Shown here in pieces: positions 1 through 22,454 of a stretch of DNA of 40,000 nucleotides. The stretch's first letter is position 1; each line of letters begins with the position of its first letter. The stretch is from Tepidiformaceae bacterium (GTDB lineage: Bacteria; Chloroflexota; Dehalococcoidia; Tepidiformales; Tepidiformaceae). The position numbers were made by a program, and so were the translations under genes. The notes beneath the pieces were generated by a model. It was not told the origin of the DNA, searched no databases, and saw only the letters and a list, made by a program, of their open reading frames with translations. The stretch covers positions 2,403,650 to 2,443,649 of the forward strand of contig OZ246422.1 of NCBI GenBank assembly GCA_965231185.1. Reading direction: 5' to 3'.

Positions 1-2197
1 CCCCAACGGCCAGCACCTCGACAGCTGAGGCTACCGGGTCCCATTCGCGGTCCGGGTCATGCACGCGTCCCAACTGGTCAACGACGTGCTCAGCCCACGT
101 AGGAACTTGCTCACTCACGGCCAGTAGCTGGTTCAAGCCGCCCGGGAAGTTCCAATGCCCGTGATGCTCAAAGTTCACCAGCCCTTGCAGCGCCTGTGCC
201 GCCCGTAGTTGCGAGTCAGCGCCGCCGTCCAGCGGCAAACGAAGCTTGACCGCCCTGGGGACTTCTCTCGTGTCCTGTCTGGCGAAATCGATACTGGTCC
301 GCGCGAATGCGTCACTTGCGGTGCCCCGTGAGCCCGCGAACACGGCCCGCTCCAACTCCTCCCGATCCCAATCGATTGCGGCCATCACCGCGTTCATCAC
401 GAGCCGGCGAAGGTTGTCAGTGACGCCCGTCATCGGCCCATTGTTCGCCCAAGTCTGGATCGCCCCGAGGCGCCGCTGCACGGCCTGAGGCACTTCAGCC
501 TTATGCTCGACCTCCGGCTCTACTTCTGAGTGCGGCTGTGGTTCGGTTGGCGGGTCCTCGCCGAGCATGAGTGGGTCGAGCGTGAAGGCTGCGTACAGTT
601 CGTCCGGAAGCTGTGTGGCATCGCCCGGACGCGAGCTCCACAATTCCAGCAGGGCGAGATAGCGGTCAGCTTGCGGTCCCGTTCGATCACGGACTTGTCG
701 CTGGACGCCTACCTCCAGTTCTCGGCCGCCGTGATTCTCAACGAGTTGGCTGTCAGGGAAGTCGCCTCTCCGGAGTGACTGTGACCGGAGATCGCTCACG
801 ATGGGGCGGAGGATGTCCCGCAGCAGCGAGCGGGGATCCATTGCAGCGCTGTTTGGTGAACGATCTCTCCACCGCTGCGCCATGTTGGAGAGGGCGTGGG
901 ACGTGAACGGGTACAGCCCTACCTCGCCCGCCCCCTGGAGCGAGCGTGATCCAAAGGTTGCATGGCAGGGTTCCCGGTGCTCGCACTCTGTGCACGCATT
1001 CGGCAGAGGCGGCCTAGTCTCGCCAGTTCGGGTCTCCGCGTACCACTCGTGCAGTGTGCGGTCGCCGACGCGCAGCGCGTTGAGGTAGCGAGCGGCGAAG
1101 GGCGCGAGCCTGTCGCCCTCGTCGAGCGGTGACCGTTGATCGAGGTTGATGATGAAGTCCAGTCGTGTCTTCTGTGTAGCGAGCAACTCACTCCGGTAGT
1201 AGCCGGTAGTGACGGCAATAAGCAGGCGCATTTGACATAGCTCGTCGGAACTCTCGATGAGCGCGTCGAGCAGGGCACGGTCGATGCCCTCCGTCCGCAC
1301 GAAGTCCTCAACGAGCAGGACGAGCGTCTGTCCCTTTTCCCTGAGGTGTCGCCGAATCCCGTTTAACAAGTCCGTCAAGTCGCCGCTTCCTAGCCCGAGC
1401 GTCTGCGCGACAGCGGCGTCGAGATGCGCGTTGACCAGTTCAACGGCTCGCTCCCGGAGTTGCGCGTTGCCTTGCAGGCTGCGCAGCAGGTGGACCGTTG
1501 GGGCAGCAAGGTCGCGCATTCGCGTCATCGCGGCATCAAGATGCAGGTCGGCCTCTTCGAACCTGCGGCGCGTTTCTCGATCCTCGCGGCCCGATGCGGT
1601 CGTGATGTGACGGACCAAATCCGCAACGATTCCCTTCTCCCCCGAGTGGTGTTCTCTCATGGATGGGTCGAGGAAGAAGTCGCGCAGTCCGTTCGCCAGC
1701 GCTGCGTCAACTTCATTGCTGTGCTCGGAGCGATCGAGGGAGAGTGCGAGGCCCGTGAGGAGGCCTAATTCGAGTTCCGTGAACTCCGAGGCTGAATCGG
1801 GAGCCGCAACGAGCTTGTCTTGGTACTCCGCTCGGAGGGCTGGTGGGAGCACCTCGATCAGTCGCCCCACAATCCAGCGCAGACTCGTTCCCGAGCGCGG
1901 GACGCTCACTACCCGCAGATCGGTGCGGTCCCGAGGGATGTTCAATTCAACCCATCGCACCAGGTGCGACTTTCCGTATCCGCTGTCACCGATCACGACC
2001 GCCCGGACATCGCCGGAACGCGTGATGAAGTCCTCCAAGAACTCCTGGGCGGAGCGCTGGCCAGCAGGACGCTCGAACGAAAGCGGCTCCTCCGTGTGCA
2101 CGGCCATGAAGACCGGTGCCTGTGCTGCATCCGCGTCAGTGCGCATCACCTGTTCGGCGCGCTCGGACTCCCAGCAGACGACACGCGTAAAGCTCAT
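1..2197 (-). CDS. dpdH: DpdH-like large P-loop NTPase (partial; C-terminal part lies beyond window start)
   Basis: Absent from the supplied ORF track because it has no stop inside the window. Hand translation of the minus frame from ATG 2197-2195 reads MSFTRVVCWESERAEQVMRTDADAAQAPVF... and stays open to position 1 (>730 codons). Walker A-like GDSGYGKSH, Walker B-like LVLLVEDF, Cys cluster CTECEHREPCH. Its start overlaps the upstream stop by 4 nt (ATGA). The dpdH label rests on gene order after the E/F/G-like genes and on size, not on alignment. Confidence 0.5.
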   Translation of the reverse strand, partial: MSFTRVVCWESERAEQVMRTDADAAQAPVFMAVHTEEPLSFERPAGQRSAQEFLEDFITRSGDVRAVVIGDSGYGKSHLVRWVELNIPRDRTDLRVVSVPRSGTSLRWIVGRLIEVLPPALRAEYQDKLVAAPDSASEFTELELGLLTGLALSLDRSEHSNEVDAALANGLRDFFLDPSMREHHSGEKGIVADLVRHITTASGREDRETRRRFEEADLHLDAAMTRMRDLAAPTVHLLRSLQGNAQLRERAVELVNAHLDAAVAQTLGLGSGDLTDLLNGIRRHLREKGQTLVLLVEDFVRTEGIDRALLDALIESSDELCQMRLLIAVTTGYYRSELLATQKTRLDFIINLDQRSPLDEGDRLAPFAARYLNALRVGDRTLHEWYAETRTGETRPPLPNACTECEHREPCHATFGSRSLQGAGEVGLYPFTSHALSNMAQRWRDRSPNSAAMDPRSLLRDILRPIVSDLRSQSLRRGDFPDSQLVENHGGRELEVGVQRQVRDRTGPQADRYLALLELWSSRPGDATQLPDELYAAFTLDPLMLGEDPPTEPQPHSEVEPEVEHKAEVPQAVQRRLGAIQTWANNGPMTGVTDNLRRLVMNAVMAAIDWDREELERAVFAGSRGTASDAFARTSIDFARQDTREVPRAVKLRLPLDGGADSQLRAAQALQGLVNFEHHGHWNFPGGLNQLLAVSEQVPTWAEHVVDQLGRVHDPDREWDPVASAVEVLAVG

Positions 2198-3060
2198 CGT
2201 CGGTCCTCACCTAGTCGAAGCTGCGACACAGGGCGAGGCTCCGGCCAGAGAGTCAGCATCATCACACGGGCGTCGCTGGGCGGGGGTGGCATCTCGACTG
2301 CGCCTCGATCCTTCAGCCGAGCGAGCGCGAAGCTGGTTGATCGTGAGAACTGGGCGTCCGAACGCTGGCGTTCGATGCTGAACTGTCGCTCGACTTCCTG
2401 GCGGACGCTGCCGCCCTCCATCACTGGACACACCTTAGCGACGCGTGACATCACGTCGCTAATCGGGAGCTCTTCACCCACTCGCATCGTCTTTCGCATT
2501 GCGGACTCGAGGGCGACGCTGGGGTCCGGTACGAGCAACTCGCTGGCTTCTCCCTGGATGCCGGTCCCAAGCCGCCAACCGAATCCAAGATAGACAGCCC
2601 AGTACGCGAACTGTTGGCAGGAAGCGATGTTGACGAGTTCGAACGCGTTGGTTGTGCTTGGGCAGTCACGCTCAACGAGCGTGCGCCAGTTGTCCCTCAA
2701 ACTCAGTGGCGTCGACGTGGGTTGCGCTAGGAACCAGGCGATGGCAGGTGCTACCGAAACCTGCTGCGCATCAGCCGCTAGTTCCGGGAACAACAGCGTG
2801 TGCGCGATGACCGTGCGGATGTCGTCCGTGGCCGCAGCTTCGTCTGTCAACTTCCAGCGGTCGCCATCGGTCCGTTCGATCAGCCCCAGATTCGATGCCT
2901 CAGCAACGACCCCTGAGATGACATTCCTGGCTTCGCGGAGAGTGGGAGGTGACAGTAGCCCGTACACCTCCTCGGTCGACACGTTCGTACGCCCGCGAAG
3001 GTAACGGACGACCGCCTCCATGCGGTTCGGAACCGCTTCCCACGTCGTGACGACGCTCAT
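2194..3060 (-). CDS. dpdG: DpdG-like protein (288 aa, no catalytic motif recognised)
   Basis: Protein-like ORF MSVVTTWEAVPNRMEAVVRYLRGR..., with 4-nt start/stop overlaps to both neighbours (3057-3060 and 2194-2197). Assigned by position between the DEAH helicase and the P-loop NTPase. Confidence 0.45.
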   Translation of the reverse strand: MSVVTTWEAVPNRMEAVVRYLRGRTNVSTEEVYGLLSPPTLREARNVISGVVAEASNLGLIERTDGDRWKLTDEAAATDDIRTVIAHTLLFPELAADAQQVSVAPAIAWFLAQPTSTPLSLRDNWRTLVERDCPSTTNAFELVNIASCQQFAYWAVYLGFGWRLGTGIQGEASELLVPDPSVALESAMRKTMRVGEELPISDVMSRVAKVCPVMEGGSVRQEVERQFSIERQRSDAQFSRSTSFALARLKDRGAVEMPPPPSDARVMMLTLWPEPRPVSQLRLGEDRR

Positions 3061-5585
3061 CGCTGCAACTCTGAGACGAACTCGGCGAGACTGAGGACTC
3101 GGGCTACCGGGGGTGCCTGGCGGAGCGTGACGCCCGGCTTCGATGGATGCGGGACCGACTCGTCGAGCAGCCAGATGCGCTCGGCTCCGGGCTCGCGCGC
3201 CGCGAATTGGTAGGCCGGCAGCCGCTCACTCGCTCGTCCAACGATCACCGTGGGCCCCTCAGGCAAGTCGTTCAATCCCAGTTCATGTGCCACAAACAGC
3301 GGTGTGTCCCCGGTTTCTGCGAAGTCATCCGCGTCAAACGCATCTCCGAGCAGAATCAGGTTCCGGACCCCGCATGCGGAGATGCGACGGAGCGCCTCCT
3401 TCTCGCGCCGCCGGGCCAGCGGCCCGCTCGTCCGCTGGCCATGGAACACGAACAGTTGACCGTTGCGGTTGAGCAGGTGTGGTAACCGGCCCGTGAGCTC
3501 CGTGGGTGGCCACGGATGCGGCGTGACTGGCGCATTGCTGTCGCGCAGCGGTCGCCCGATACGCCGACAGGGAGGGCAGCCGCCGCACGCACGACCCACC
3601 CGGACAGCGGGTAAGTCCTGGGCGGCGTCACCCTCCATCTCATACATCGGCGCGATGGCCTCGCCCGCGCAACGATCGCCACGCAGGAGAAATGACTTCA
3701 TCCGCTCGAACGAACGCCTCGCCACGTCCTTGCGAGCAGCCCTGAATCCCGCGATGCGATCTTCCCAGAAACTCTGATCAATCGTGGCGTCCATTACCAA
3801 GCTCACGCGCGGTCGCTCAATGTCGATAGCACCCTCGCCATCATCGTCGTCCTCAAGGTCGAGAGCGCTGTTCAACTGCCGAACCAACCGGTCAGGAACA
3901 TCAAGCAGCCGGATACCGCCTGCCGCCGCCATCAATACGAGGGTCTTGACGTTCCACCCCGTGTTCCTCGGGCCGACCATGTCGATCTCGCGGTCATCCA
4001 CGCCAGGCCGGCAATCGACTGGCACGGCGTGCACTCCGTCTGAGTACTCGTGGTCCTGGTGCGTGAACATCGCCCGCCAGCGGTGTGCCGCGCGTTCTTC
4101 CGTCAGCATCTGCTGTGCACTGATCTTGGCGGCGATATTGAGGTCGCGGTGTGAGGGCAGCAGCAGCGAGACACTTGCGCGGCCATCCCGGCCGCCCCGC
4201 CCGACTTCCTGATAGAAGCGATCAAGCGACTCAGGGACACAGGCATGCACAACCGCCCGCACGTCGGGATTGTCGATGCCGAGTCCGAAAGCCGATGTGC
4301 CGACCACAAGGTCCATCTCCCCATCGCGCCAGCCCCGTACGACCTGATTGCGGACGGCATCGGGCGTGTCTCCGGCAATGGTGCCGACCCTTCGGAATCC
4401 ACGCTCCCGGACTGCTTCGTACCAGTGCGCTGCGTCCGCACGGGTCGTGGTGTAGAGGATGAGTGGGCGCGGCAGATGCAGGAGAGCCTCGAACACACGC
4501 GCTTCCCGTGTGGCCTGATCAGTCGTGTCGGCAACCCAAAAGCTGATCTCGGGGCGGAGCTGGGCAGCACTGACTACCCTGAACGGCTCCCCAGGGAAGA
4601 GCGTTCGCAATAGATCGATCGAGGAGTGGGTGAGGGTTGCGGACAGGAGCACGGTACGGAAGCGGCGTTCGCCAGCGAGTTCGAGCAGTTGACGGCGTAG
4701 CCCCGCAAGCATCTGGAACTCCGGACGGAAGTTGATTCCCCAGGTGTCGATCAGGTGCGCCTCGTCAACGACGATCGTGCGCAGACGGCCACGGCTTGCA
4801 GCCTCACGGAGTGGTTCGCTCAGCGAGGTGCAGACTGCCTCTGGAGAAGCGAAACACAACGACTGCTCACCGTTGCGAATGCGATCGAGCAGCGGCTGAT
4901 TCTTTTCGGCCTCGCCCGCGCGGTACGCCAGCGGTGTGTCATCGAAGCCAAGCCGATGCGAACTCTGTTCGTGGTCGGCGGCTAGCGCCACTGTAGGCGT
5001 TACGACGAGTGTCACGCCGGGCCCGTCGCCGAACCCGACGCGGGCCAGAGCCTGGAATGCCAAGCTCTTCCCCTCGCCCGTCGGAAGCGACACGACCAGC
5101 GTTGAACCGCGCGGCGCACTCAGCGTTGCGCGTAGCGCCCGGCGCTGCCCAGGTGAGCGATATGAGTCGTAGTCGAATGCGGCCAGGTACGGATCGGCTG
5201 CGGCTAGGTCACTGCGCCGCCGCTCCTGAGATTGAGCTGTCGCTCCGTCCACACCTTCGTCCGGGACGTTGGGCAACCACTCTGGCTTCCACGGGAGGCT
5301 CTCGATCCTGAAGGCACCATCAACTGGAGTAGCCGTTACGCCAACAGAGGCCCAGTCAGCGGCCGTTGGCATGTCCGACCCGGCCGACACGCGGAGAGCG
5401 CCACCTTCCCGCTGCAGCACGTGCCTGAGGAGGGCGGCCAGATCCAACGGCGAGGCAGAACTCGTGTCTAGAGCCCGGAAGAGACGTGCGATTGGGGGTG
5501 GCGCGTTGCTTGGGTTCGGCACGGCATCGCCGAGCAGGCGCGCCCGAAGCGCCTCAAACGGATGGTTGATCGTCACACTGGTCAC
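3057..5585 (-). CDS. dpdF: DpdF-like superfamily-2 DEAH helicase (RecQ-like core)
   Basis: Motifs LPTGEGKSLAFQ (Walker A), VVDEAHLID (DEAH), LLSATLT, GTSAFGLGID and QEVGRGGRDG. 842 aa. 4-nt overlaps with the flanking genes. Confidence 0.6.
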   Translation of the reverse strand: MTSVTINHPFEALRARLLGDAVPNPSNAPPPIARLFRALDTSSASPLDLAALLRHVLQREGGALRVSAGSDMPTAADWASVGVTATPVDGAFRIESLPWKPEWLPNVPDEGVDGATAQSQERRRSDLAAADPYLAAFDYDSYRSPGQRRALRATLSAPRGSTLVVSLPTGEGKSLAFQALARVGFGDGPGVTLVVTPTVALAADHEQSSHRLGFDDTPLAYRAGEAEKNQPLLDRIRNGEQSLCFASPEAVCTSLSEPLREAASRGRLRTIVVDEAHLIDTWGINFRPEFQMLAGLRRQLLELAGERRFRTVLLSATLTHSSIDLLRTLFPGEPFRVVSAAQLRPEISFWVADTTDQATREARVFEALLHLPRPLILYTTTRADAAHWYEAVRERGFRRVGTIAGDTPDAVRNQVVRGWRDGEMDLVVGTSAFGLGIDNPDVRAVVHACVPESLDRFYQEVGRGGRDGRASVSLLLPSHRDLNIAAKISAQQMLTEERAAHRWRAMFTHQDHEYSDGVHAVPVDCRPGVDDREIDMVGPRNTGWNVKTLVLMAAAGGIRLLDVPDRLVRQLNSALDLEDDDDGEGAIDIERPRVSLVMDATIDQSFWEDRIAGFRAARKDVARRSFERMKSFLLRGDRCAGEAIAPMYEMEGDAAQDLPAVRVGRACGGCPPCRRIGRPLRDSNAPVTPHPWPPTELTGRLPHLLNRNGQLFVFHGQRTSGPLARRREKEALRRISACGVRNLILLGDAFDADDFAETGDTPLFVAHELGLNDLPEGPTVIVGRASERLPAYQFAAREPGAERIWLLDESVPHPSKPGVTLRQAPPVARVLSLAEFVSELQR

Positions 5586-8500
5586 GCCGTTGGGTCCGGG
5601 CGATCGTGGGACACGATGAACGCGCCGATGGCCTCAAGCCGCAGGTGGGGCACTGTAACGGCCTGCCGGAGCGCCTCGGCCACGCCCCGCCGCCTCGTCA
5701 CCGATGGGTCGGTCTCCCCGAGCAACTCAAGCGCCCGGTGCCGGCGGTTGAGGCGGGCCTGTTGAGCCGCGAGCGTTTGCACAGCCGTGCTGCGCGCGTG
5801 CTCGAAACGCGTTGTGAAGTCAGGCTCGGCACGGAGCAACGCTTCGGAGCGGGTGCGGACTTCGTGGCAGAGCGTAGTGAAGCGCGGACCGCCCACCACG
5901 GCCTCAATCAAGTCGGGGCGGCCCCCGAGATTTACATCGGAATAGCGGTCGTAGTCACGCTGCAGGATGTCGCAGATCAGGGGGTCTGTGACCAACTCGA
6001 ACCTCGTATCGTAGTCGCGCGTCTCGATCCACCGTGGGAAGAGGTAGTTGGCCGCGCCTAGGACAGCACCGACTGGTATTGAGGAGTCCTCCTCAAGCGA
6101 CTCGCGAAGCCTCCGCTCATCAATCTCGACAACGTAGGTCAGGCGGAAGCCCACCCACTCGCCAGCTTCGGCTGGCCAGCGCCTATCCGCACGCCACGTT
6201 GCGAAGGCCATACCGCGATCGTCGCGGCGCATGAGCCGAAGCATCTCGTCGGCGAGGGGGGAGCCGGGCCGCACAAGACGCACTGTCGGGTCGGCGAGTG
6301 CCCGTTTGCGGTCGAACGTCAGCGGCCGATCGAGGCCGGGCTCGAATCGCTCCCTCCATCCCGGTTGCTCGGGGATTCGGGTCTGGCGGCCCCATCGAAC
6401 GCGGAAGACACCCGGTGCGCGTTCCTCACGCCCGAACCGCAGCACATCGAAGAGCCATCCCGAAACATCGTCCGCAAACTGCTGCTCGCCGCGCTCAGCC
6501 CCCTGGAGGCGCTCGAAGGCATCCCGCGCGTCGCGGGCCTCCAGGTCCAGTTGATCGAGCGCGTACTGCCGGTCCTGCCGCTGGCGTTCTTCGTCGAGTG
6601 CGTTCCGAATAGTGCTCGTCAGGTCCGTGACCCCGGCGGCACCTCTGCGAAAGAGAGCCAAGCGAACCCTCTCGCGCAGTTCATCGAGAAGAAAGTGGAT
6701 GTCGGATATCGATCGCGAGTAAACGCCAAATCCGTCCCTGAGCAGTTCGTGCCACGCTAGCCACGGGCTACTATCCGCATCGCTGGGCAGCACAACTCGG
6801 GTGGGGATGTCCGGGCGGCGGCGTCCCATGCGATCGAGCCGCCCGACGCGCTGTTCGAGCCGCTCCGGCGCGAACGGGAGATCGGTCAGTAGCAAGCCGT
6901 CCGCGGCCTGTAGATTGAGGCCCTCCTCGGCGGTGTGGTCGGCGATGAGCACTGCGGGGCGGCTGCTCCCCACGAACCGATCGACTGCATCTTCCACCTC
7001 AGAGTCACTCATGCCTGCGGTCACCATGGTCACGGTGGTCGCGACGCTCAACTGAAGGCGGTCAGCCAGTCGCTCTGCGAACCTGGTAGAGGATGTAAAC
7101 GTGACGATGAGTGGCGGTTCGTCCCCTCCGCGCCGCGCCAGCCCAGAGAGCGTCAGGTCGATCGATGCCAGGCAGAGTTCGAGACGCGTCATTCCCTCGC
7201 CCATTCGTTCGCTGGTGGCGAGGGAATCTGCGACCCATTCGAGTTCGCCCGGATACGCTTCGGGCCCTCCGTCCTGTAGCACAGCCATACGAGTGCGGAG
7301 CAACGCAACGTACTCATCGAGGCCTTGACCGAGCGCTTCCAGCAGGCTCTCGTACAGCCGCGCGGCTCCCGTCTCAGTCTCGGGAGTAGCAACCGCAGCG
7401 GCGTCGGCTCGCCACTGTTCCAAGAGGACCATCGCGTTCTCGACCCTCGAGTCGTCGTCCACCTCGACGGCCGTGATCGGACACGAGCGGTCGAGCCAAC
7501 CGGCGTCCACTCGCCGCGTACGTATCAATCGGTGATCGAGCCGGTACGTTTCAGAGATCAACTCACGCAAGTTCCGCACGGCCGCCTGGCGATGCCCTGC
7601 GTCGAGACTGGTATCGAGCACGGCGGCGCAGGACGCGCGCACGTCCGGATCCTCGTGAAGGAGTTCGGCGATCTGCGCGACCGTGGAGCCAAGCAAGACC
7701 AGCGATGCTTCGGGATCGAGCGCCAGCACCAGTTCGCCGTAGCGCTGTCGACGCTCACTCCGCGCGCGGAAACGGTCAACATCGTCAAGCGGATACGTCA
7801 GCGGATCCAGGATGTGGAGCAGTGCGAGCGTCGCTGCTTCATCGCCCAACACCGGCGTGGCAGTGAGGAGTAGGAGTCGCTCCGCCTTGTTGGCAACGTT
7901 GGTGAGTAGCCCGTACCCGTCTGCCAGCGCTCCGCCACGACCGATCAGGTGGTGAGCCTCGTCGATGATGAGCAGATCAAGTCCGTCATCGTCCTCAAGG
8001 AGGTCCTCGAGGCAGGTCATATCGAAGAACTCGACCTGCCCCTCGTCCGTGTCGATGTCGAACTTCTCGCGCAGTTCGCGCTGCCACTGTCGCAGCAGTG
8101 AAGTGGGGGCAACCACGGCGGCGCGGGACGAAGGTGCATCGGTGAGGAGTTGTCGCAGGATGGCCCCTGCCTCGATCGTCTTCCCAAGGCCGACCTCGTC
8201 CGCAAGGAGATAGCGTTGGATCGGATCCTCCCGCAGTCGCTGCACAACGTGGAATTGATGTGGCATCAACTCCACGCTCGCCGACACGAGCCCGCCCGCG
8301 TTGGCTGAGGCGTTCTGCTGTGCGAGAAGGGCACCGAGTGCAGCGAGGCGCCGGTCATGGAAGTGCTGGGACTCGACTCCACCCGCGGCAAGTGCGTCCG
8401 TGGGATCCACTGTGGGGGCGAAGCACCGCGCTTCGAGTACGCTTTCCACTACCGGGGCATCGTCACGGCCCGGCAGGCGAACCAAGTAGGCTAGTTTGTC

Positions 8501-8974
8501 TTCGCCGGCGGAGCGGTCGTAATCAATGATTCGGCCTGCTGACCATGCCTCGCGCGTCTCGTCAAACACGTAGACACGGGTCTGGGGTGACAGGTACGCC
8601 CGCTCCAGTTGGCCAGGGACGTACTCCCACTCTTCGCGCTTGGCTGCGGAGTGAACGATGCGTACCTGCGCTCGGCCGGGGCTCAGGTGGACCAACTTCC
8701 CGAGCAGGGCCCGGTCGTACGTCCACACAAATCCGCCCACCTGCAGCCGAGAAGGGTCAACGACTTCGGGGCGCAAGGCTGACGGGGCCTTCTTGGGTGG
8801 CTCCACATCGAACCCATCTGCAAGGTCGCGCGAGCCCCGGCAGGCAGGGAATTGTGAACAGCCCCAGAAGGAATCGCCGGAACGCCACCCCCGTTGGGCT
8901 ACCCTGATCTCCATCGCCCCACCGCAGGTTGGACAGGGCGGAGCGTCAGCAGATTCGACGGTCATACTCTCCAA
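5582..8974 (-). CDS. dpdE: DpdE-like SNF2-family helicase with N-terminal C4 topoisomerase-type zinc ribbon
   Basis: N-terminal CPTCGGAMEIRVAQRGWRSGDSFWGCSQFPACRGS. SNF2 motifs LLADEVGLGKTIEAG, LLIIDEAHHL, LLLTATP, EGLNLQ and QRVGRLDRMGR. 1130 aa and first gene of the minus-strand operon. Confidence 0.6.
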   Translation of the reverse strand: MESMTVESADAPPCPTCGGAMEIRVAQRGWRSGDSFWGCSQFPACRGSRDLADGFDVEPPKKAPSALRPEVVDPSRLQVGGFVWTYDRALLGKLVHLSPGRAQVRIVHSAAKREEWEYVPGQLERAYLSPQTRVYVFDETREAWSAGRIIDYDRSAGEDKLAYLVRLPGRDDAPVVESVLEARCFAPTVDPTDALAAGGVESQHFHDRRLAALGALLAQQNASANAGGLVSASVELMPHQFHVVQRLREDPIQRYLLADEVGLGKTIEAGAILRQLLTDAPSSRAAVVAPTSLLRQWQRELREKFDIDTDEGQVEFFDMTCLEDLLEDDDGLDLLIIDEAHHLIGRGGALADGYGLLTNVANKAERLLLLTATPVLGDEAATLALLHILDPLTYPLDDVDRFRARSERRQRYGELVLALDPEASLVLLGSTVAQIAELLHEDPDVRASCAAVLDTSLDAGHRQAAVRNLRELISETYRLDHRLIRTRRVDAGWLDRSCPITAVEVDDDSRVENAMVLLEQWRADAAAVATPETETGAARLYESLLEALGQGLDEYVALLRTRMAVLQDGGPEAYPGELEWVADSLATSERMGEGMTRLELCLASIDLTLSGLARRGGDEPPLIVTFTSSTRFAERLADRLQLSVATTVTMVTAGMSDSEVEDAVDRFVGSSRPAVLIADHTAEEGLNLQAADGLLLTDLPFAPERLEQRVGRLDRMGRRRPDIPTRVVLPSDADSSPWLAWHELLRDGFGVYSRSISDIHFLLDELRERVRLALFRRGAAGVTDLTSTIRNALDEERQRQDRQYALDQLDLEARDARDAFERLQGAERGEQQFADDVSGWLFDVLRFGREERAPGVFRVRWGRQTRIPEQPGWRERFEPGLDRPLTFDRKRALADPTVRLVRPGSPLADEMLRLMRRDDRGMAFATWRADRRWPAEAGEWVGFRLTYVVEIDERRLRESLEEDSSIPVGAVLGAANYLFPRWIETRDYDTRFELVTDPLICDILQRDYDRYSDVNLGGRPDLIEAVVGGPRFTTLCHEVRTRSEALLRAEPDFTTRFEHARSTAVQTLAAQQARLNRRHRALELLGETDPSVTRRRGVAEALRQAVTVPHLRLEAIGAFIVSHDRPDPTA

Positions 8975-9260
8975 TGGCTCTGGTGCTACCCGTTTCTAGA
9001 GAGTGGTTCAGCGCTTCGACTAGCTAGGCGGGCACCCTGGGGATTGTAGCGGGGAAGGCTCTGCGGTGCGCGACAGAGCACGGATGGTCTGCCTCGAAGA
9101 AGGCTGCGGGAGTGGGGCGGTTCGGTTTCAGCAGACGAGGACCTTGTCAGCAATGTTCAGATGCCTCAGAGTTGGCAGGTGTCGAGCAGTGGGTCGCCTA
9201 CGTCCCGCGCCGCTGTGGCGGGGGACGTAAACCTGGCGGCCCAGGAAGGAGTTGAGTCGG
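8975..9260. promoter_or_regulatory. Divergent control region between the dpdE-H and dpdB...dpdA operons, with a leader hairpin
   Basis: 286-bp non-coding spacer between divergent start codons. Hairpin: TACGTCCCGCGCC (9199-9211), loop GCTGT, GGCGGGGGACGTA (9217-9229), pairing 12 of 13. SD GGAAGGAG at 9244-9251 lies ahead of ATG 9261. Confidence 0.4.
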
Positions 9261-10430
9261 ATGGCAACGTATGTTCCCGCAATGCGCGCCAGGATCGGGG
9301 TTACCGAGTATTTCGTGTCGGTCATGACGCTGGGCGAGGCCGCCCGAATGATCGACTATGCCGAAGAAGTGGACGGCTGGACTTCGGAGACACCTCCGGA
9401 GTTGAAAATGCAGCGAAAGCTGAATAACCAGCGTGTCGAAAAGGAGATGGTGCCCTACCTCGTGGCGAACGATGACCACTTCTACTCTGCGCTGACAGTC
9501 GAGGTCCGCACTATGCGTCGTGGCTGCGAGGCCCTCAACTTTGAGGCAACAGCGCAGTTTCCCGGGGGCATCGACTTCGGCCAGTTGACCCTGGACGGGA
9601 CGGAGTCGCTTTACGCACTCGATGGCCAGCACCGGTTGAAGTCGATTGAAGTTGCGATCAGGCAGCGTCCTGAGCTCGCGGGGGAGCACATCGCCCTCAT
9701 CCTCGTGCCCTTCGACGACATCTCGAAGTCGCAGACCCTCTTCAGCGACCTCAACAGGAATGCGAAGGCCCCCTCCAAGTCCATCTCGCTTCTCTTTGCC
9801 CATCGCGATCCGCACGCGCGCATCGCCAAGCGCGTGTGCGACCAAGCTCCACTGCTGCGAGGTCGCATGAACCTGGAGAGCACGAGCCTCTCGACGAACG
9901 CCCGCCAGTTCATGACGCTCTCGACCTTGTACGAGATGGTACGGACACTCATCGGGGATCTCGCTGATGACATCACCGTTGAAGAGGAGGAGCGCCTCGC
10001 CAGTGATGTCGTCGAAGTAATCGACTGCCTGACCGACGCTATTCCGGCCTGGCGCATGGTCCGTGACGACGAAGAACACCCCGCCTATCTGCGGCAGCGA
10101 CAACTTGTCGGGCACGGTGTTGCCCAGCGAGCGCTCGCCGAAGTCGCGCGGCGCGCACGGGCGCAGTCAGAAACGGGGTGGAAAGATTCACTTAAGCGCT
10201 TAGGCGAGTGTTCAAAAAGCGGCGAGCCCGTGGTAGATTGGCAATTGACCAACCCGGGGTGGCAGAGCGTTGCTCTCCAAGGTGGGCGTGTGAACAACAC
10301 TTCGACCTCTATCCAGCTCCTCTCCGACGAGCTGTCCGGCCTGATCGGCCTTGAATTCGCGAAGGGCGCCCAGCAGGTTAGGCGAGGCGCTTCCCCACCC
10401 GCGGCCGTTCTAGCTCGCCCGCGCACGTAA
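9261..10430 (+). CDS. dpdB: DpdB, DGQHR-domain (DndB-like) partner of DpdA
   Basis: YALDGQHRLKSIEV (DGQHR motif) and QTLFSDLNRNAK. ATG 9261 is preferred over the track start at TTG 9252 because of SD spacing. Confidence 0.8.
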   Translation: MATYVPAMRARIGVTEYFVSVMTLGEAARMIDYAEEVDGWTSETPPELKMQRKLNNQRVEKEMVPYLVANDDHFYSALTVEVRTMRRGCEALNFEATAQFPGGIDFGQLTLDGTESLYALDGQHRLKSIEVAIRQRPELAGEHIALILVPFDDISKSQTLFSDLNRNAKAPSKSISLLFAHRDPHARIAKRVCDQAPLLRGRMNLESTSLSTNARQFMTLSTLYEMVRTLIGDLADDITVEEEERLASDVVEVIDCLTDAIPAWRMVRDDEEHPAYLRQRQLVGHGVAQRALAEVARRARAQSETGWKDSLKRLGECSKSGEPVVDWQLTNPGWQSVALQGGRVNNTSTSIQLLSDELSGLIGLEFAKGAQQVRRGASPPAAVLARPRT

Positions 10431-10442
10431 GGAGCAACCGCC

Positions 10443-10886
10443 ATGTTCATAGACCGCGTCGAAGTCTCGTTCGATGCGGCACACCGGCTAATGGGCTATG
10501 ACGGCAAGTGCGCCTCTCCCCACGGGCATACCTACCGGGCGGAGGTCTTCGTCGGCAGGGCACACCTAGATGACCTCGGCCTCGCCGTTGACTTCGGTGA
10601 GATCAAGAAGCCGCTGAAGCGATGGATTGATGCTCACTGGGATCATGCGTTCCTTCTCAACGACCGTGATGACCTGCTGATAGGCGCTCTTCAAGTAATT
10701 CCGGAGAGCAAGCTGTATTGCTTCCCTGGCCTCAACCCCTCGGCTGAGGTGATGGCGCAAACCCTGTTTTGCGTGATGCGAGCCGAACTCGGGAGCAGTC
10801 TGCTCCGCGTCCGAATTTGGGAAGCGGGGCAGTACGCGGACTACGTCTTGTCCGAGGGCGACATCGACGAAGGAGAACACCTATGA
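10443..10886 (+). CDS. queD: 6-carboxy-5,6,7,8-tetrahydropterin synthase
   Basis: FDAAHRL...GKCASPHGHTY, the Cys/His-Gly-His motif typical of QueD. 147 aa. Its stop overlaps the queC start (ATGA). Confidence 0.9.
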   Translation: MFIDRVEVSFDAAHRLMGYDGKCASPHGHTYRAEVFVGRAHLDDLGLAVDFGEIKKPLKRWIDAHWDHAFLLNDRDDLLIGALQVIPESKLYCFPGLNPSAEVMAQTLFCVMRAELGSSLLRVRIWEAGQYADYVLSEGDIDEGEHL

Positions 10887-11620
10887 CTCGGAAACTTGGA
10901 GTAGTCCTTCTCTCAGGTGGGTTGGATTCGACCACCGTCGCAGCGCAGGCGGTTCAGGAAGGCTACGAAGTGGTCGCGGTCACCGTGCACTACGGACAGG
11001 TGCACAGCAGAGAACTGGATTCGGCAAAGAAGGTCGCCGAGGGGCTGGGACTTCGCCACGAGATCGTGGACGTCTCATTCTTCAGCCGGCTGGCGTGGTA
11101 TTCGGCTCTCACCAGCCCGGATCGCTTCGACATCCCCGAGGGGCGCTCTGTGGAAGAGATGGCTGCGGACATCCCAATCACCTACGTGCCAATGCGGAAC
11201 ACATTCCTGCTCGCCCTGGCATCGTCCTACCTTGAGAGCCACGCCCTGCAGGAACTGGAGCGTGATGGTGGCCCTTCGGAGCCGGTCACGGCGACCCTCT
11301 TCATCGCCGCGAACGCCATCGACTACAGCGGCTATCCGGACTGCCGGCCGGAGTTTTACGAGAGCCTGGCCGAGACGCTTCGCCTGGGGAGCAAGATAGG
11401 GACGCAGTACGGGGTGCCGTTTGAGATAGCGACTCCTCTCCTGCACATGACCAAGGCCGACATTGTGCGCTACGCCGTCGCCATAGATGCCCCGCTCGAT
11501 ATGACGTGGAGTTGCTATGAGGGCGGGGCTGTGCCGTGCGGTCGCTGCGACAGCTGTCTGCTCCGAGCCAAGGGCTTTGCTGAGGCTGGCGTGGCCGACC
11601 CCATCATGGCCTTGGTCTGA
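10883..11620 (+). CDS. queC: 7-cyano-7-deazaguanine (preQ0) synthase
   Basis: Start MTRKLGVVLLSGGLDSTT (PP-loop SGGxDS). C-terminal Cys cluster WSCYEGG..PCGRCDSCLLR. The upstream part of track ORF 10769.. is rejected; SD GAAGGAGAA lies ahead of ATG 10883. Confidence 0.9.
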   Translation: MTRKLGVVLLSGGLDSTTVAAQAVQEGYEVVAVTVHYGQVHSRELDSAKKVAEGLGLRHEIVDVSFFSRLAWYSALTSPDRFDIPEGRSVEEMAADIPITYVPMRNTFLLALASSYLESHALQELERDGGPSEPVTATLFIAANAIDYSGYPDCRPEFYESLAETLRLGSKIGTQYGVPFEIATPLLHMTKADIVRYAVAIDAPLDMTWSCYEGGAVPCGRCDSCLLRAKGFAEAGVADPIMALV

Positions 11621-11623
11621 GAC

Positions 11624-12331
11624 TTGCTGAAACTCGCTCGACTCCCGTCCGGCGAGCCGGAGATCTTCACCTCGATTCAGGGCGAGGGGGCTTCAGCGGG
11701 CCGGCCGAGCACCTTTGTCCGCCTGTCCCTCTGCAACCTCGCCTGTTCGTGGTGTGACACAAAGTACACGTGGGATTGGGAGCGCTACGACCCAAAAGTC
11801 GAGATCACGGCCCTCGACTGCAGTGCGGTCGCTGCCAAGGTCTCTGAACTCGGTGTGGAGAACGTGGTTGTCACTGGTGGCGAGCCACTCATGCAGCAGG
11901 CTCCACTGGCCGAGCTTGCGGGCGACCTCGCACAGCGGGGACACCGCATCGAAGTGGAGACGAACGGCACCTTTACTCCGCGGCCTTCACTAGAGCCCCA
12001 CATCGCGCAGTGGAATGTCTCGCCCAAATTGGCGAACTCGGCCAACCCGATAGAGCGCCGACAGTTGGACGAACCGCTGAAGTGGTTCGCCGCGTCCGAC
12101 AAAGCGTGGTTCAAGTTCGTGGTCGACACACCAGCTGACCTCGAAGAGGTCGACTGTGTGCTAGCCAGGTTCGGGGTTCCGACCGAGCGGGTCATCCTGA
12201 TGCCCCAGGGCACCTCACCCGTAGCCATCCAGCAACGCTCGACGTGGCTCGCCCCCCTGTGTAGTGATCGCGGCTACCGGTTCTCAACGCGCCTGCACAT
12301 CCTGATCTGGGGAGACAAGCGGGGATTCTGA
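11624..12331 (+). CDS. queE: 7-carboxy-7-deazaguanine synthase (radical SAM)
   Basis: IFTSIQGEG, CNLACSWCDTKYTW (Cx3Cx2C) and VVVTGGEPL. TTG start. Confidence 0.9.
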   Translation: MLKLARLPSGEPEIFTSIQGEGASAGRPSTFVRLSLCNLACSWCDTKYTWDWERYDPKVEITALDCSAVAAKVSELGVENVVVTGGEPLMQQAPLAELAGDLAQRGHRIEVETNGTFTPRPSLEPHIAQWNVSPKLANSANPIERRQLDEPLKWFAASDKAWFKFVVDTPADLEEVDCVLARFGVPTERVILMPQGTSPVAIQQRSTWLAPLCSDRGYRFSTRLHILIWGDKRGF

Positions 12332-12346
12332 GAAGAGTTCAGCGCC

Positions 12347-13078
12347 GTGACTATTTTCGCGGAGGCGCACTCTGGAGAGGTGTCTCGAAGACACGCGGTG
12401 GGAGAGAAAGCATATCCTGCGCCTCTCAGCATGGAGCTAGGAGTCGAGTCTCAGCCGATGACAGGGCAGCGCGTCCTAGTGGTCAGCGCGTGCTCGAAAC
12501 GCAAGCTGGGTGACCGGGCGGCGGACCTAGGGTCTGACTCGCTGCTGCCCGCTCGTGAACGCTACGCGGGTCGGGCTCACTGCCGAGTGCGAGAAGCCAT
12601 CGATCGTTGGCGTCGGAGCCGTACTCAGGACCAGATCGAGTGGTCAATCGTCTCCGCTGGGCTTGGCTTGGTCGGCGAGGCTGCTCTGACACCCCTCTAC
12701 GAAGAAGCCTTTTCCGGCATGAGCCCGGCGGCGGCCAAGCGGCGTGGTCTTGAGCTTGAGCTGCCGAGCGGCCTGCGGCGCCGGCTGAAGGCGTTCGACA
12801 CGGCACTGTTCATCTTGCCGCTGGTATACCTCCACGCGGTTGGGGCACCCTTTGAGTCCTCCACTACTCAACTCTACTTCGCGTCCCCCCTGGTCGATCA
12901 GAAGTTCGGCCGGGCCGTAGTCGTCCCGTGCGGCATTGATGATGCACAAGAGTTGAGCGTGTCTCCGCGGGATGTTGGGGCCACCCGATTCGCATCGTTC
13001 GTCGACGATGCCATCGCGCATGGCCTCAACTCGGCACTCAGCACGTGGGACGTGCACCGCGAAGGAGGAGGAACGTGA
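12347..13078 (+). CDS. dpdC: DpdC-like protein (DUF6884-type; candidate enzyme converting preQ0-DNA to ADG-DNA)
   Basis: Sits between queE and dpdA. Core VLVVSACSKRKLG...YAGRAH...WSIVSAGLGLV...PLYEEAFSGMS resembles my memory of the DUF6884/DpdC pattern. Start uncertain (12347 GTG, 12431 or 12458 ATG). Its stop overlaps the dpdA start (GTGA). Confidence 0.5.
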   Translation: MTIFAEAHSGEVSRRHAVGEKAYPAPLSMELGVESQPMTGQRVLVVSACSKRKLGDRAADLGSDSLLPARERYAGRAHCRVREAIDRWRRSRTQDQIEWSIVSAGLGLVGEAALTPLYEEAFSGMSPAAAKRRGLELELPSGLRRRLKAFDTALFILPLVYLHAVGAPFESSTTQLYFASPLVDQKFGRAVVVPCGIDDAQELSVSPRDVGATRFASFVDDAIAHGLNSALSTWDVHREGGGT

Positions 13079-14274
13079 AGTTCTTCCTTCCTGACTGGGA
13101 TGACCGTGTCGACCCGGGATACGACTTCCTAACCGATAGGATGACCCTGCGGCGTGACCCCTACGAGGACGACCGCTACGCCCATGAACTCTTTGCTGAC
13201 CGGCTGTATGACGGAATCTTGGTCTCGCGCATGGCGCTATTCCGCAAGGGACGAAAGCGCGACCGGGTAGAGAAGGTCGGGATGAAGGCTTACCTGCGGA
13301 TGCCTGAGCAGTTGGAACTCTTCGGCGACTGTGGGGCGTTCGGGTACATCGAGCGACGTGATCCGGTCTTCGCGACGGAGGATGTCATCGATCACTATGA
13401 GCGACTGGGCTTCGACTACGGTGTCTCGGTCGACCACATTATTCTTCCGGAGTTTGAGGACCAGCGTGCCTACCGCTTCGACCTCACGCTCAGGAATGCT
13501 GAATCCTTCCTGACGATGCACCGCGAAGGGGGGTTCAACTTCACGCCGGTTGGAGCAGCCCAGGGCTGGGACGAGTGCACCTACGTCGAGGCTGCAAACG
13601 CCCTCGTTGAGATGGGTTACACCTACATTGCCATAGGCGGCCTTGCGCGGAGTAACACTCGCGACATCACCAACGTGCTGACGGCTGTCTCGGGAGTGAC
13701 CGCGGGACGGGCCCAGGTGCACGTCTTTGGCGTAGCCCGAGCCACCTTGCTGCCGCTGCTTATCGAGTTGGGGGTAACCAGCGCCGATAGTGCGGCACCG
13801 TTGCGACAAGCCTGGCTCTCAGCGAAGGACAACTACTACACGCCGGACGGAGCGTACGCGGCCATCCGAATCCCCGTGGCGAAAGAGGGAAGAGGCCTCA
13901 GCGGCTCACTCGTTGGTCGCAGTGAGGCTTCCTTTCAAGATCTCCAGCAAGCGGAACAGGAGGCGCTGGCTGCGGTGCGCGCGTTCGCAGAGCGCAGACT
14001 TGGGATGCGGGAAACGCTCAAGCGCATCAATGCCTATGACTCGATGCTAGGTGCCCGTCCGTACGAAAGCGACGCCCAGCGCAGAAGCCAACTCTACAAG
14101 GAACTCTTGCGCGCTCGTCCCTGGGATCGGTGCCCCTGCCCCATCTGCAGGGAACTTGGCGTTGAGGTGGCAATCTTCCGCGGAAACAACCGGAACAGGC
14201 GTCGTGGGTTCCACAACCTCTGGGTCCTCCGACGCCGTATCGAACGCGAACTCGGCGTGGGAGCCCTTCCGTGA
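13075..14274 (+). CDS. dpdA: DpdA, tRNA-guanine-transglycosylase-like DNA transglycosylase
   Basis: GTG 13075 preceded by SD GAAGGAGGAGG. TIM-barrel TGT-like body (FGDCGAFGY, SVDHIIL, IAIGGLA). TGT zinc site CPCPICRELG...FHNLW (CxCxxC...H). Genomic context with dpdB and queCDE. Confidence 0.85.
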   Translation: MKFFLPDWDDRVDPGYDFLTDRMTLRRDPYEDDRYAHELFADRLYDGILVSRMALFRKGRKRDRVEKVGMKAYLRMPEQLELFGDCGAFGYIERRDPVFATEDVIDHYERLGFDYGVSVDHIILPEFEDQRAYRFDLTLRNAESFLTMHREGGFNFTPVGAAQGWDECTYVEAANALVEMGYTYIAIGGLARSNTRDITNVLTAVSGVTAGRAQVHVFGVARATLLPLLIELGVTSADSAAPLRQAWLSAKDNYYTPDGAYAAIRIPVAKEGRGLSGSLVGRSEASFQDLQQAEQEALAAVRAFAERRLGMRETLKRINAYDSMLGARPYESDAQRRSQLYKELLRARPWDRCPCPICRELGVEVAIFRGNNRNRRRGFHNLWVLRRRIERELGVGALP

Positions 14275-14367
14275 TGACATGGCTCCGAGACAGTCACCTT
14301 GTGGTGGGCATGCAGGGGGAAGTCCAGCCTCCTGCCATAGCTGACTTCTCTCGGCGAGGGGGTACTC

Positions 14368-14937
14368 GTGGCCGGCGCGTCAGGTGAGCCGAGCGGCGGC
14401 CTGCACCCGAAGGCGACTTCCTACGACTGCGCCATGAACCTTCACTCCTTCGTCCGTTGGAGACCGCGGGGACAGTCCTATAGGAGTGAAGGGTGTCGGG
14501 GCTGCGGGGCCCAGTTGATTGACTGGTCCAGGCTGGATCGGCACGACCTCGAGGACATCGACAACACCGTCTCATCCCTGCAGCGAGAGTTGATTAGGCA
14601 CGAGTTCTGGAACAGGCCCCTAGACGCCAGGGCCCTCAATCATGCGAACAGGAAGGGTCGTGGCGGACTGCGCGAGGACGCTGTCCACCGACTGAGCAAG
14701 TACCTCGGCAGACCGAGATCAGAGTTGTCTCGTGACGGCATGCAAACGCCGTTCGCAGGCAACGTTATCTATTACGCCCAGCACGCCACGGCAACATGTT
14801 GTCGGAAGTGCGTCGAGGCATGGCATGGGATCGACCGGGGAAAGCCTCTGGCCTCTGACGAGGTCAGTTACTTGACCGAGTTGGTGATGCACTACATCGA
14901 GAGGAGACTTCCTATCAAAGGCAGTATCTGCCTGTGA
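14368..14937 (+). CDS. DUF4186-like Cys-motif protein with N-terminal CxxC extension
   Basis: C-terminal half DGMQTPFAGNVIYYAQHATATCCRKCVEAWHGI matches my memory of the DUF4186 signature (QHATATCCRxC..WH). Extra CRGCGAQLIDW near the N-terminus. SD-like GAGGGGG lies ahead of GTG 14368. Confidence 0.55.
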   Translation: MAGASGEPSGGLHPKATSYDCAMNLHSFVRWRPRGQSYRSEGCRGCGAQLIDWSRLDRHDLEDIDNTVSSLQRELIRHEFWNRPLDARALNHANRKGRGGLREDAVHRLSKYLGRPRSELSRDGMQTPFAGNVIYYAQHATATCCRKCVEAWHGIDRGKPLASDEVSYLTELVMHYIERRLPIKGSICL

Positions 14938-19728: not shown

Positions 19729-19921
19729 CTAGAGCGTTACTGGGCGAAGGTAGTAGCGTAATGGGCCTCGCAAGGCCGACGACACTGCCGATGAGGTCGA
19801 ACGACGCCTATGGCGCGGATCTGCGGTTCACTCCCACAGGCGCTGGTCGGCGGCTGAGCCTCGCAGCTCTGCCGCATCGGCGACCAATCGCTGGGGCAAT
19901 AGGAAAGCCCCAACATAGAAG

Positions 19922-19961
19922 CCCACAGAGGGAGGCCATCGCGGTGGCCTCCCTCTGTGGG
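19922..19961 (-). terminator. Perfect 17-bp-stem hairpin downstream of the SNF2 helicase
   Basis: CCCACAGAGGGAGGCCA (19922-19938), loop TCGCGG, TGGCCTCCCTCTGTGGG (19945-19961). It lies 9 nt after the helicase stop (TAG at 19970-19972). No clear U-tract. Confidence 0.6.
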
Positions 19962-19969
19962 CCGGCGGC

Positions 19970-22246: not shown

Positions 22247-22372
22247 GGTGTGTCTCCTTCTCTCTTGGCAGGGACGACACCAGGGCCTGGGCGCACTGCG
22301 CCCACCCCGTGCGGGAGGGGACGCTCAGTGCAAGAGCCATGGAAACGTCCCCATTGAGGTGGCTGGTGCGAA

Positions 22373-22393: not shown

Positions 22394-22454
22394 CCTCGTT
22401 TGCGGATCGGCGTTGACCCGTCGGGAGCCGCCAGATGGAGGCGGCTGGAAGAAA

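Follow-up and report, generated by a model that had tools for sequence, protein, structure and literature searches.

A probable complete Dpd-type 7-deazaguanine restriction-modification island and its adjoining helicase-nuclease pair in a Tepidiformaceae bacterium

Dpd systems place a 7-deazaguanine base as a mark in the DNA of their own cell and destroy DNA that lacks it, and they are the largest restriction-modification systems known. A stretch of 40,000 nt from a Tepidiformaceae bacterium (GenBank assembly GCA_965231185.1, contig OZ246422.1, positions 2,403,650 to 2,443,649; here called the window, to which all coordinates refer) very probably carries a complete, horizontally acquired island of this type. 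The island has three parts (Table 1): a modification operon with the gene order B-queD-queC-queE-C-A, where A, B and C stand for dpdA and for the genes at the dpdB and dpdC positions; a divergent restriction operon that runs from dpdE to dpdD; and, beyond dpdA, a block made of a UvrD-like helicase gene and a nuclease gene (U and N below). Horizontal acquisition is suggested by base composition, because the G+C content is 0.62 against 0.70 in the flank; it lies at 0.60-0.67 across the island and at about 0.70 past 19 kb. Every one of the eleven dpd genes is an intact open reading frame (ORF), as is each que gene, with motifs preserved and translational coupling in both operons. A preliminary description of the window, made from its letters, had listed most of these genes, and ORF listing and family scans found them all at or very near the coordinates given, with family assignments far above chance. 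Its right limit of 14274 was too tight: conserved partner genes run on to 18542, and the helicase-nuclease pair had been overlooked.

Table 1. Features of the island and its right edge, with the genes that continue the restriction operon on an overlapping contig (L001)
Feature	Position	Strand	Size, family scores and description
dpdH (5' part)	2-2197	-	732 aa, partial; NF041065 511 bits (cut-off 450); P-loop NTPase, BrxC-like; runs off the left window end
dpdG	2194-3060	-	288 aa; NF041064 119.9 bits (cut-off 80); precomputed match to Pfam PF28110 DpdG
dpdF	3057-5585	-	842 aa; NF041063 759.4 bits (cut-off 550); RecQ-like DEAD/DEAH superfamily 2 (SF2) helicase
dpdE	5582-8974	-	1130 aa; NF041062 839.5 bits (cut-off 500); SNF2/BrxHII-like helicase
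dpdE-dpdB intergenic region	8975-9260		286 nt, between divergent genes
DGQHR protein gene (dpdB position)	9261-10430	+	389 aa, ATG start; first gene of the operon; DGQHR/ParB fold, DndB branch
queD	10443-10886	+	147 aa; Pfam PTPS 93.7 bits (above threshold); TIGR03367 80.1 bits (cut-off 89.25); 6-carboxytetrahydropterin synthase
queC	10883-11620	+	245 aa; TIGR00364 187 bits (cut-off 150); Pfam QueC 208 bits; preQ0 synthase
queE	11624-12331	+	235 aa; radical-SAM 7-carboxy-7-deazaguanine synthase; Pfam Radical_SAM 42.6 bits; cluster motif CNLACSWC
Short dpdC-like gene	12347/12458-13078	+	243 aa from GTG 12347 or 206 aa from ATG 12458; DUF6884 superfamily
dpdA	13075-14274	+	399 aa, GTG start; NF041059 430 bits (cut-off 200); DNA-guanine transglycosylase
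Cys-rich DUF4186 gene	14368-14937	+	189 aa; Pfam DUF4186 88.6 bits; between dpdA and the helicase gene
UvrD-like superfamily 1 (SF1) helicase gene	15133-17502	+	789-aa ORF, likely start ATG 15211; Pfam UvrD-helicase 126 bits
Cas4/AddB-like iron-sulphur (Fe-S) PD-(D/E)XK nuclease gene	17472-18542	+	347-356 aa; PDDEXK_1 (PF12705) 39.6 bits (gathering 22)
IS5-like DDE transposase gene	18591-19571	+	Pfam DDE_Tnp_1 and DUF772; right edge of the low-GC island
dpdH, full length	on L001	same operon	1011 aa; 589 bits (cut-off 450)
dpdI	on L001	same operon	245 aa; 49 bits (cut-off 150), below cut-off yet aligned end to end
dpdJ	on L001	same operon	1523 aa; 1485 bits (cut-off 800)
dpdK	on L001	same operon	173 aa; 177 bits (cut-off 100)
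dpdD	on L001	operon end	720 aa called; 128 bits on the 384 aa available (cut-off 300)

The restriction and modification operons

Region 1-8974, which the preliminary description had assigned to the restriction half of the system, matches the NCBIfam equivalog models of DpdE, DpdF, DpdG and DpdH above their cut-offs, and PADLOC agrees on these four proteins as well as on DpdA. The predicted domains fit: DpdE has an N-terminal Zn_ribbon_Top1 domain followed by SNF2-rel_dom and Helicase_C (Pfam), DpdF combines Pfam DEAD and Helicase_C with GEGKS and DEAH motifs, and the Walker A motif of DpdH reads GDSGYGKS. Neighbouring genes share 4-nt overlaps (5582-5585, 3057-3060 and 2194-2197, the last formed by the dpdG stop and the dpdH ATG at 2197), and dpdE-F-G-H are therefore translationally coupled. 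The rest of the operon was reached by a look-up with DpdG, which retrieved a 13-kb contig (L001) from an independent public sequencing run. Over the first 3990 nt, L001 and the reverse complement of window positions 1-3990 are 100% identical. On this contig the operon continues through a full-length dpdH to dpdI, dpdJ and dpdK, which had been expected to the left of the window, and ends with dpdD. DpdJ and DpdK, like DpdE to DpdH, score above their equivalog cut-offs, and DpdI and the partial DpdD score below them. As had been said beforehand, the interval between dpdE and dpdB holds no gene of dpdD size; treating a missing dpdD as notable was a mistake, and we reject the idea. The gene lies at the operon's end, and the order E-F-G-H-I-J-K-D is that of the annotated cluster on an Enterobacter cloacae plasmid, so dpdD is not missing and its apparent absence reflects the orientation of the operon, which is divergent from dpdB.

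The two operons are separated by an intergenic region that presumably holds both promoters. A consensus scan of this region found no sigma-70 promoter and no terminator. It contains a 13-nt inverted repeat at 9199-9229 (TACGTCCCGCGCC / GGCGGGGGACGTA), about 30 nt upstream of the dpdB start, that could be an operator. Nucleotide identity to a sister locus from a related genome (L006, described below) falls to 77-81% over 8823-9121.

The modification operon consists of six genes on the + strand (9261-14274) with short gaps or overlaps between them. Its TGT-like product had been proposed to be DpdA, and this holds: the protein scores 430 bits on the DpdA model, compared with 41 bits on the model for the archaeal tRNA-guanine transglycosylase (ArcTGT) and 23 bits on the general tRNA-guanine transglycosylase (TGT) model. 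Its similarity to the solved DpdA of Salmonella Montevideo (PDB 7UI4) has an E-value of 2e-77, compared with 8e-9 for ArcTGT. The key residues named for the Salmonella enzyme by Gedara et al. (PMC10164549) were mapped through a HMMER alignment to 7UI4. The equivalents of Asp95, Asp130, Asp256 and Phe99 are D85, D120, D238 and F89, so that the general acid/base (D85), the nucleophile (D238), the third aspartate (D120) and the stacking phenylalanine (F89) are all kept, and a zinc site of the form CPCPICx21H (CxCxxC...H) is encoded at nt 14131-14214. The three preQ0 genes are assigned with differing firmness: QueC scores above its cut-off, and QueD and QueE are best-match assignments with intact motifs (the best NCBIfam matches of QueE are four QueE models at 89-99 bits, all below cut-off). 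A Shine-Dalgarno sequence precedes the queC start codon, ATG 10883, and start codon and queD stop overlap in an ATGA. No folE gene lies in the modification operon, the remaining small ORFs of the window not having been scanned for FolE; two related loci (L012 and L013) carry a GCHY-1 gene (folE2). The embedded queD, queC and queE genes had been presented as a notable feature, and they do not distinguish the island because preQ0 genes inside dpd clusters have already been described (PMC5699537; PMC11888242).

The gene at the dpdB position is less straightforward. Its product has the DGQHR motif (nt 9621, aa 121) and matches the DGQHR model TIGR03187 with 146 bits (cut-off 58.85), and its strongest affinity is to DndB (242.5 bits on the Pfam DndB model, 192 bits on the DndB equivalog TIGR03233, whose cut-off is 328). 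With the DndB-like protein in the dpd cluster of Allocoleopsis/Microcoleus PCC 7113 it shares 24% identity and the pattern of NCBIfam matches, and its close relatives are named "DNA sulfur modification protein DndB" by public (PGAP-style) pipelines. That the gene is dpdB, as first proposed, thus stands as far as the DGQHR domain is concerned and fails at the level of the DpdB model, since the protein belongs to the DndB branch. Thiaville and colleagues reportedly used the name DpdB in a broad, DndB-like sense in 2016, and a DGQHR protein beside dpdA fits that sense.

The names given to these relatives, together with the sharing of que genes with tRNA pathways, would allow a reading in which the que and TGT-like genes serve tRNA queuosine or archaeosine or a deazapurine metabolite, or in which the DndB-like gene marks a dnd system. 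This can hardly be credited. Besides the gap between the DpdA score and the 23-41 bits of the tRNA TGT models, the DGQHR protein scores best on DndB models yet stays below the DndB equivalog cut-off, and its gene heads an operon with que genes and dpdA. No dndA, dndC, dndD, dndE, queF, queA or tgt was found among the scanned ORFs (smaller ORFs were not scanned), nor any of dndFGH among the annotated ORFs of the window, and the block is embedded between dpdE-K and the helicase-nuclease pair. Both the tRNA-TGT and the dnd readings were rejected on model scores.

The third modification gene, at the dpdC position, encodes a short protein that has no family match at default thresholds. Below threshold it matches Pfam DUF6884 with 12-13 bits (gathering 30; E = 0.13-0.19) and the PADLOC DpdC model with E = 1.7e-4. 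The start at ATG 12458 is the one used in public gene calls, and the stop overlaps the dpdA start (GTGA). Homologues of this short form make up 28 clusters among 5.8 billion sequences: all 28 match PADLOC DpdC models (best 7.7e-9), and 26 match Pfam DUF6884, again below threshold. When the family profile was compared with Enterobacter DpdC by hhalign, the N-terminal core aligned with a probability of 85% (E = 6e-6). The motifs CSKRK (CxxxK) and VSAGLG (LSAxxG), corresponding to those singled out for DUF6884 by Pfam curators (PMC11701544), are kept in an alignment of the ~318, 206-226 and 156 aa length classes. An AlphaFold2 model (pLDDT 88.6) gave only weak flavodoxin-like and YaaA matches in a Foldseek search of the PDB (TM score ~0.4); the predicted fold appears to be alpha/beta and related to YaaA, and the structure adds little more. 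Among genome contigs of species representatives, a search with the short-DpdC profile found one Chloroflexi metagenome-assembled genome (MAG) only. The similarity that had been noted to DUF6884 is therefore real, but sub-threshold, and it belongs to a protein that is shorter than expected. By analogy, it is probably a short-form DpdC that carries out the nitrile-to-amide step.

Several of these results weigh against the reading as a complete Dpd-type island. First, the DGQHR protein has no match to the DpdB model NF041060 at E<=10, on which canonical DpdB proteins score 412-477 bits, and no BLAST similarity to enterobacterial DpdB; its presumed role as the ATPase partner of DpdA is extrapolated across DGQHR branches. 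Second, canonical DpdC (~318 aa) exceeds the DpdC-like protein by about 100 aa, and only the N-terminal core aligns. The end product could stay dPreQ0 or be another compound. Third, DpdA has Gln163 (nt 13561-13563) in place of His181, which contacts the base in the S. Montevideo enzyme.

The helicase-nuclease pair and its relatives

The two genes beyond dpdA form a tight unit. The nuclease gene's likely start, ATG 17499, overlaps the helicase stop (ATGA), so the two are translationally coupled. Key motifs are kept in both proteins: the GPGTGKT and VDEYQD motifs of the helicase are intact, and D168, D207 and K209 of the nuclease, along with cysteines C37, C327, C330 and C336, are invariant in 43 homologues. 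No mark-reading (modified-base) domain is obvious in either protein. PADLOC v2 has no specific model for them, and the nuclease matches only Cas4 models, weakly. A phage collection yielded no homologue of the nuclease. Two catalogued systems were considered and rejected as identities for the pair: Gabija, to which there are only partial GajB matches (<=77 bits over ~100-180 aa) and no GajA, and the PADLOC candidate PDC-M57A, whose models match small DUF6884 proteins, because no PDC-M57 component appears among the PADLOC matches listed for the helicase (the best 25 of 35-42) or for the nuclease.

A scan of metagenomes with a profile of the nuclease family returned 80 loci, which were annotated with local profiles (few sequences went into those for DpdB, and divergent partners may have escaped them). 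The helicase gene is nearly always adjacent to the nuclease gene. A DpdA gene is present in 44 of the 80 loci, often abutting or overlapping the pair and frequently in the same operon, and most of these loci lack dpdD-K; many of the loci without DpdA are too short to show one. The architectures that recur are U-N-A, A-U-N (with A a DUF6884-DpdA fusion), C-U-N-A and U-N-C-B-A-B-queC-queE-queD. The last is also found on replicons of the cultured strains Rhizobium sp. WYJ-E13 and Bradyrhizobium sp. 41S5, where on the Bradyrhizobium plasmid C-B-A-B and the que genes are divergent from U-N, and a Picosynechococcus plasmid with a nuclease homologue also carries dpdA. Three nuclease homologues (46-64% identity) lie beside DndB/DpdB, TGT, DUF6884 and que genes with dpdD-K absent within 10-kb flanks. 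At the small end of the range, minimal DUF6884-UvrD-nuclease-DpdA operons sit between housekeeping genes in L058 (7086-12437) and L063 (7132-12471), and further minimal C-U-N-A operons, or DUF6884-DpdA fusions of ~570-594 aa together with the pair, occur in L035 (5783-11170), L076 and L091. In these minimal and fusion loci the local profiles detected neither branch of DpdB. NurA- and HerA-like genes lie upstream in L034 and L076.

Full-text searches found no literature linking DpdA to such a pair; their coverage was incomplete, and an earlier mention is possible. Somewhat short of an even chance, in our estimate, U-N is an undescribed effector or helper module of DpdA-based deazaguanylation, spread across phyla in the form of minimal DUF6884-helicase-nuclease-DpdA operons that lack DpdB and DpdD-K. 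We would put forward with similar caution the view that the window is a rare case, in which the pair and a full canonical restriction operon share one modification module. A point on the other side is that the pair also occurs without DpdA: in about 22 of the nuclease loci each flank extends for 6 kb or more, and in 11 of these there is no DpdA and the pair stands beside McrB-like, SbcCD-like or YprA-like/phospholipase D (PLD) genes. The pair may therefore be a generic accessory and not a mark reader.

How the pair relates to the two operons can be judged from loci that resemble the window more closely. The B-queD-queC-queE-C-A block recurs in independent metagenomic loci at 50-78% protein identity. 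In L003-L005 and L007, from Chloroflexi MAGs and other metagenomes, it comes with dpdE-F-G divergently upstream. In L002 and L011 the block lacks dpdE-K and is followed by the UvrD-like helicase (64-69% identity to that of the window) and the nuclease; an insertion sequence (IS) has removed queD and queC from L002. The sister locus, L006, is ~93% identical at the nucleotide level over window positions 8823-14900 and 91% identical over 19991-24110. Within the first of these segments, a patch at 12271-13320 (dpdC and the first ~80 dpdA codons) has only ~82% identity, compared with 92-100% for most of its flanks, and looks like a recombination mosaic or a region of fast evolution. L006 also weighs against the main reading: it keeps the modification operon and retains only the first 59 dpdE codons, with a Type ISP enzyme in place of dpdE-K/D, which means that the two halves are separable. 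Window positions 15133-18542 and the adjoining IS are likewise replaced in L006, by another helicase-nuclease pair that has 26% identity and lies on the opposite strand.

These loci raise the possibility, to be taken seriously although we give it a little less than half of the weight, that U-N is the cognate restriction partner in a compact eight-gene system, B-queD-queC-queE-C-A-U-N, and that dpdE-K/D was acquired separately as another effector set relying on that mark. The island would then have two restriction modules stacked upon a single modification module. L011 has exactly this compact arrangement, with no dpdE-K within 10 kb, and L002 is an IS-degraded version of it. U and N have diverged in step with DpdA and DpdB (63-69% versus 73-77% identity). 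More distant loci repeat the pattern, as queC-queE-queD-folE2-C-A-B-U-N in L012, L013 and L056 and as C-U-N-A alone, between housekeeping flanks, in L058 and L063, and many dpdAB(C) islands "lacking the restriction operon" have been reported by GATOR-GC (PMC11888242). Against this possibility, L003-L005 and L007 have dpdE-G without U and N, the pair is found beside McrB-like or SbcCD-like genes without DpdA, neither protein has an obvious domain for reading modified bases, and the replacement of the pair in L006 by a 26%-identical copy on the opposite strand resembles the turnover of cassettes at a hot spot.

The minimal loci also bear on a different role, in which the pair would serve modification or repair: the helicase would open the duplex for DpdA, replacing or aiding DpdB, and the nuclease would process abasic or nicked intermediates. 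C-U-N-A, U-N-A and fusion-U-N operons without a detectable DpdB of either branch speak for such a role. The part played by DpdB is ATP-dependent, with a helicase-like function suggested (PMC10164549), and other NTPases have been proposed to replace DpdB in TGT-containing hybrid systems (PMC12839542). We nevertheless consider this unlikely, as the window and many other loci carry both the DGQHR protein and the pair, an Fe-S nuclease that is conserved and looks active would more typically be an effector, and the few sequences behind the DpdB profiles may have led them to overlook divergent partners.

The loss of dpdE-K/D from L006 can also be taken as a sign of decay, so that the island in the window would be an orphan remnant whose modification perhaps persists as an anti-restriction or epigenetic mark beside a non-functional restriction operon. 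IS elements abut or interrupt L002 and L003 and one lies at 18591-19571 in the window, and orphan dpdAB(C) islands are common (PMC11888242). For the window itself, such decay is quite improbable: none of the eleven dpd genes and no que gene is disrupted, their motifs and translational coupling are preserved, and the identical sequence was obtained in an independent sequencing run. A complete island remains the preferred reading.

Surroundings of the island

Between dpdA and the pair lies a DUF4186 gene that, among the related loci, only L006 shares with the window, at 91% identity; its product has no PADLOC or NCBIfam match. On the far side of the pair, G+C content steps from 0.61-0.65 to 0.70 at the IS5-like transposase gene. 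A transposase 82% identical to this one is encoded directly after dpdA in L003-L005 (at ~12003-12929 there), which suggests, from the sequences, that the same IS family may travel with the island or target it. Beyond the transposase, a block of high G+C content on the - strand (19970-30027) encodes a ResIII/Helicase_C protein (758 aa), a DUF6094/N6 methyltransferase (473 aa), two paralogues of single-stranded DNA-binding protein, a Rad52/22-like protein and a DnaG-like primase. The segment conserved in L006 (19991-24110) spans the helicase and the methyltransferase. This block resembles an integrated mobile element's backbone, and its gene content implies that the dpd island sits against or within a larger mobile element. 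A palindrome at 19921-19962, a short way downstream of the stop codon that ends the gene for the 758-aa helicase (21+21 nt, 95% complementary, no spacer), is probably a terminator or a recombination site.

Toward the right end of the window, 33651-37925 encodes a 1424-aa protein with fn3, many leucine-rich repeats and Calx-beta, and 38054-39976, at the window end, holds a 640-aa ORF with cadherin-like and Big_9 domains. G+C content dips to 0.60-0.63 at 33-36 kb, and another acquired segment is therefore suggested. No tRNA gene and no Rfam family, including the preQ1 riboswitch, was found in the window.

Comparison with known systems, possible mechanism and implications

The island belongs to a known kind of system and is set apart by its DndB-branch partner, short DpdC, divergent layout and appended helicase-nuclease module. 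Compared with the Dpd systems of Salmonella enterica Montevideo and Enterobacter cloacae plasmid pPOL9A (L010), all eleven components have a counterpart in the window and on L001, among them dpdA, dpdD-K, a DGQHR partner and a probable DUF6884 enzyme; the E-F-G-H-I-J-K-D order is the same, and the catalytic aspartates and zinc site of DpdA are kept. The window differs in that the DGQHR partner is of the DndB branch, DpdC has 206-243 aa versus ~318 aa, Gln replaces His181, and queD, queC and queE lie inside a modification operon to which the UvrD-like helicase and Fe-S nuclease genes are appended. The two operons are divergent here, whereas they are convergent in the Enterobacter cloacae cluster. 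A DndB-like partner and preQ0 genes within the cluster have been described for dpd clusters on a plasmid of Allocoleopsis/Microcoleus PCC 7113 and in Kineococcus radiotolerans (PMC5699537 Fig. 3). The PCC 7113 cluster shares both of these features with the window, and its DpdA is 45% identical; however, that DpdA is a ~700-aa fusion and only dpdJ/K-like restriction genes are present, unlike the full E-K/D set found here.

The helicase-nuclease pair likewise has relatives in other defence systems. UvrD-Cas4 fusions and Cas4-like/YprA pairs occur in defence islands, where an ancillary unwinding or cleavage role with Type III restriction-modification systems and Dcm has been proposed (Hudaiberdiev et al. 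2017, PMC5704561). With these fusions, and with AddAB and AdnAB, the pair has in common an SF1 UvrD-type helicase and a four-cysteine PF12705 nuclease that stand beside restriction-modification modules. In contrast to the fusions, the window has two coupled genes, and the partner is DpdA and 7-deazaguanine rather than a Type III system or Dcm; unlike AddAB, the pair has no AddB-like inactive-helicase domain. The haloarchaeal BRIGADE systems reuse the DpdA module, and type I BRIGADE often comes with a DNA2-like SF1 helicase/PD-(D/E)XK nuclease (bioRxiv 10.1101/2025.09.15.676423). TGT-containing BREX-related capture systems reuse it as well (PMC12839542). These hybrids also combine a module for deazaguanine synthesis and insertion with alternative effectors, and in them DpdB and DpdC are sometimes absent. 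The loci described here differ from BRIGADE in being bacterial, in the separate UvrD-like helicase and Cas4-like nuclease genes, in the canonical DpdJ and DpdK that accompany the window, and in having HerA/NurA genes in some related loci only (L034 and L076).

A working mechanism can be proposed, in which the chemistry and the restriction phenotype are carried over by analogy from the Salmonella system (for the biochemistry of DpdA, DpdB and DpdC, see PMC10164549). QueD, QueE and QueC would turn the host's dihydroneopterin triphosphate, the product of a FolE encoded elsewhere, into preQ0. DpdA and its DGQHR/ParB-like ATPase partner would swap selected guanines in double-stranded DNA for preQ0, and the DUF6884 enzyme most likely hydrates the nitrile, giving dADG (2'-deoxy-7-amido-7-deazaguanosine). 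DNA without the mark would be attacked by DpdD-K, a set that comprises three helicases (SNF2, RecQ-like and YprA-like), a BrxC-like NTPase, a PLD nuclease and DpdD. Judged by its gene context, U-N most likely works in the manner of AddAB, breaking down DNA already recognised as unmodified or completing its destruction, or else acts as an independent effector; a role as helper of modification is the weaker alternative. One possible mechanism is that the nuclease is switched off by sparse marks, in the way that AddAB is by Chi.

The Dpd island itself was to be expected in this window; the most interesting result is the broad association of U-N with DpdA. In this lineage the models miss two of the three modification proteins, with DpdB labelled DndB and DpdC labelled hypothetical, and surveys that require dpdAB therefore overlook or misfile such islands. 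Close relatives combine the modification module in a modular way with dpdD-K, with a Type ISP enzyme or with helicase-nuclease cassettes, and among the sampled relatives the helicase-nuclease pair is the commonest neighbour of DpdA. If the pair truly depends on the mark, then orphan may be the wrong word for islands described as "lacking the restriction operon", and a system of three or four genes would be far more tractable than one of eleven. A pair that reads or depends on 7-deazaguanine would, in addition, open a way to the unsolved restriction half of Dpd through two genes.

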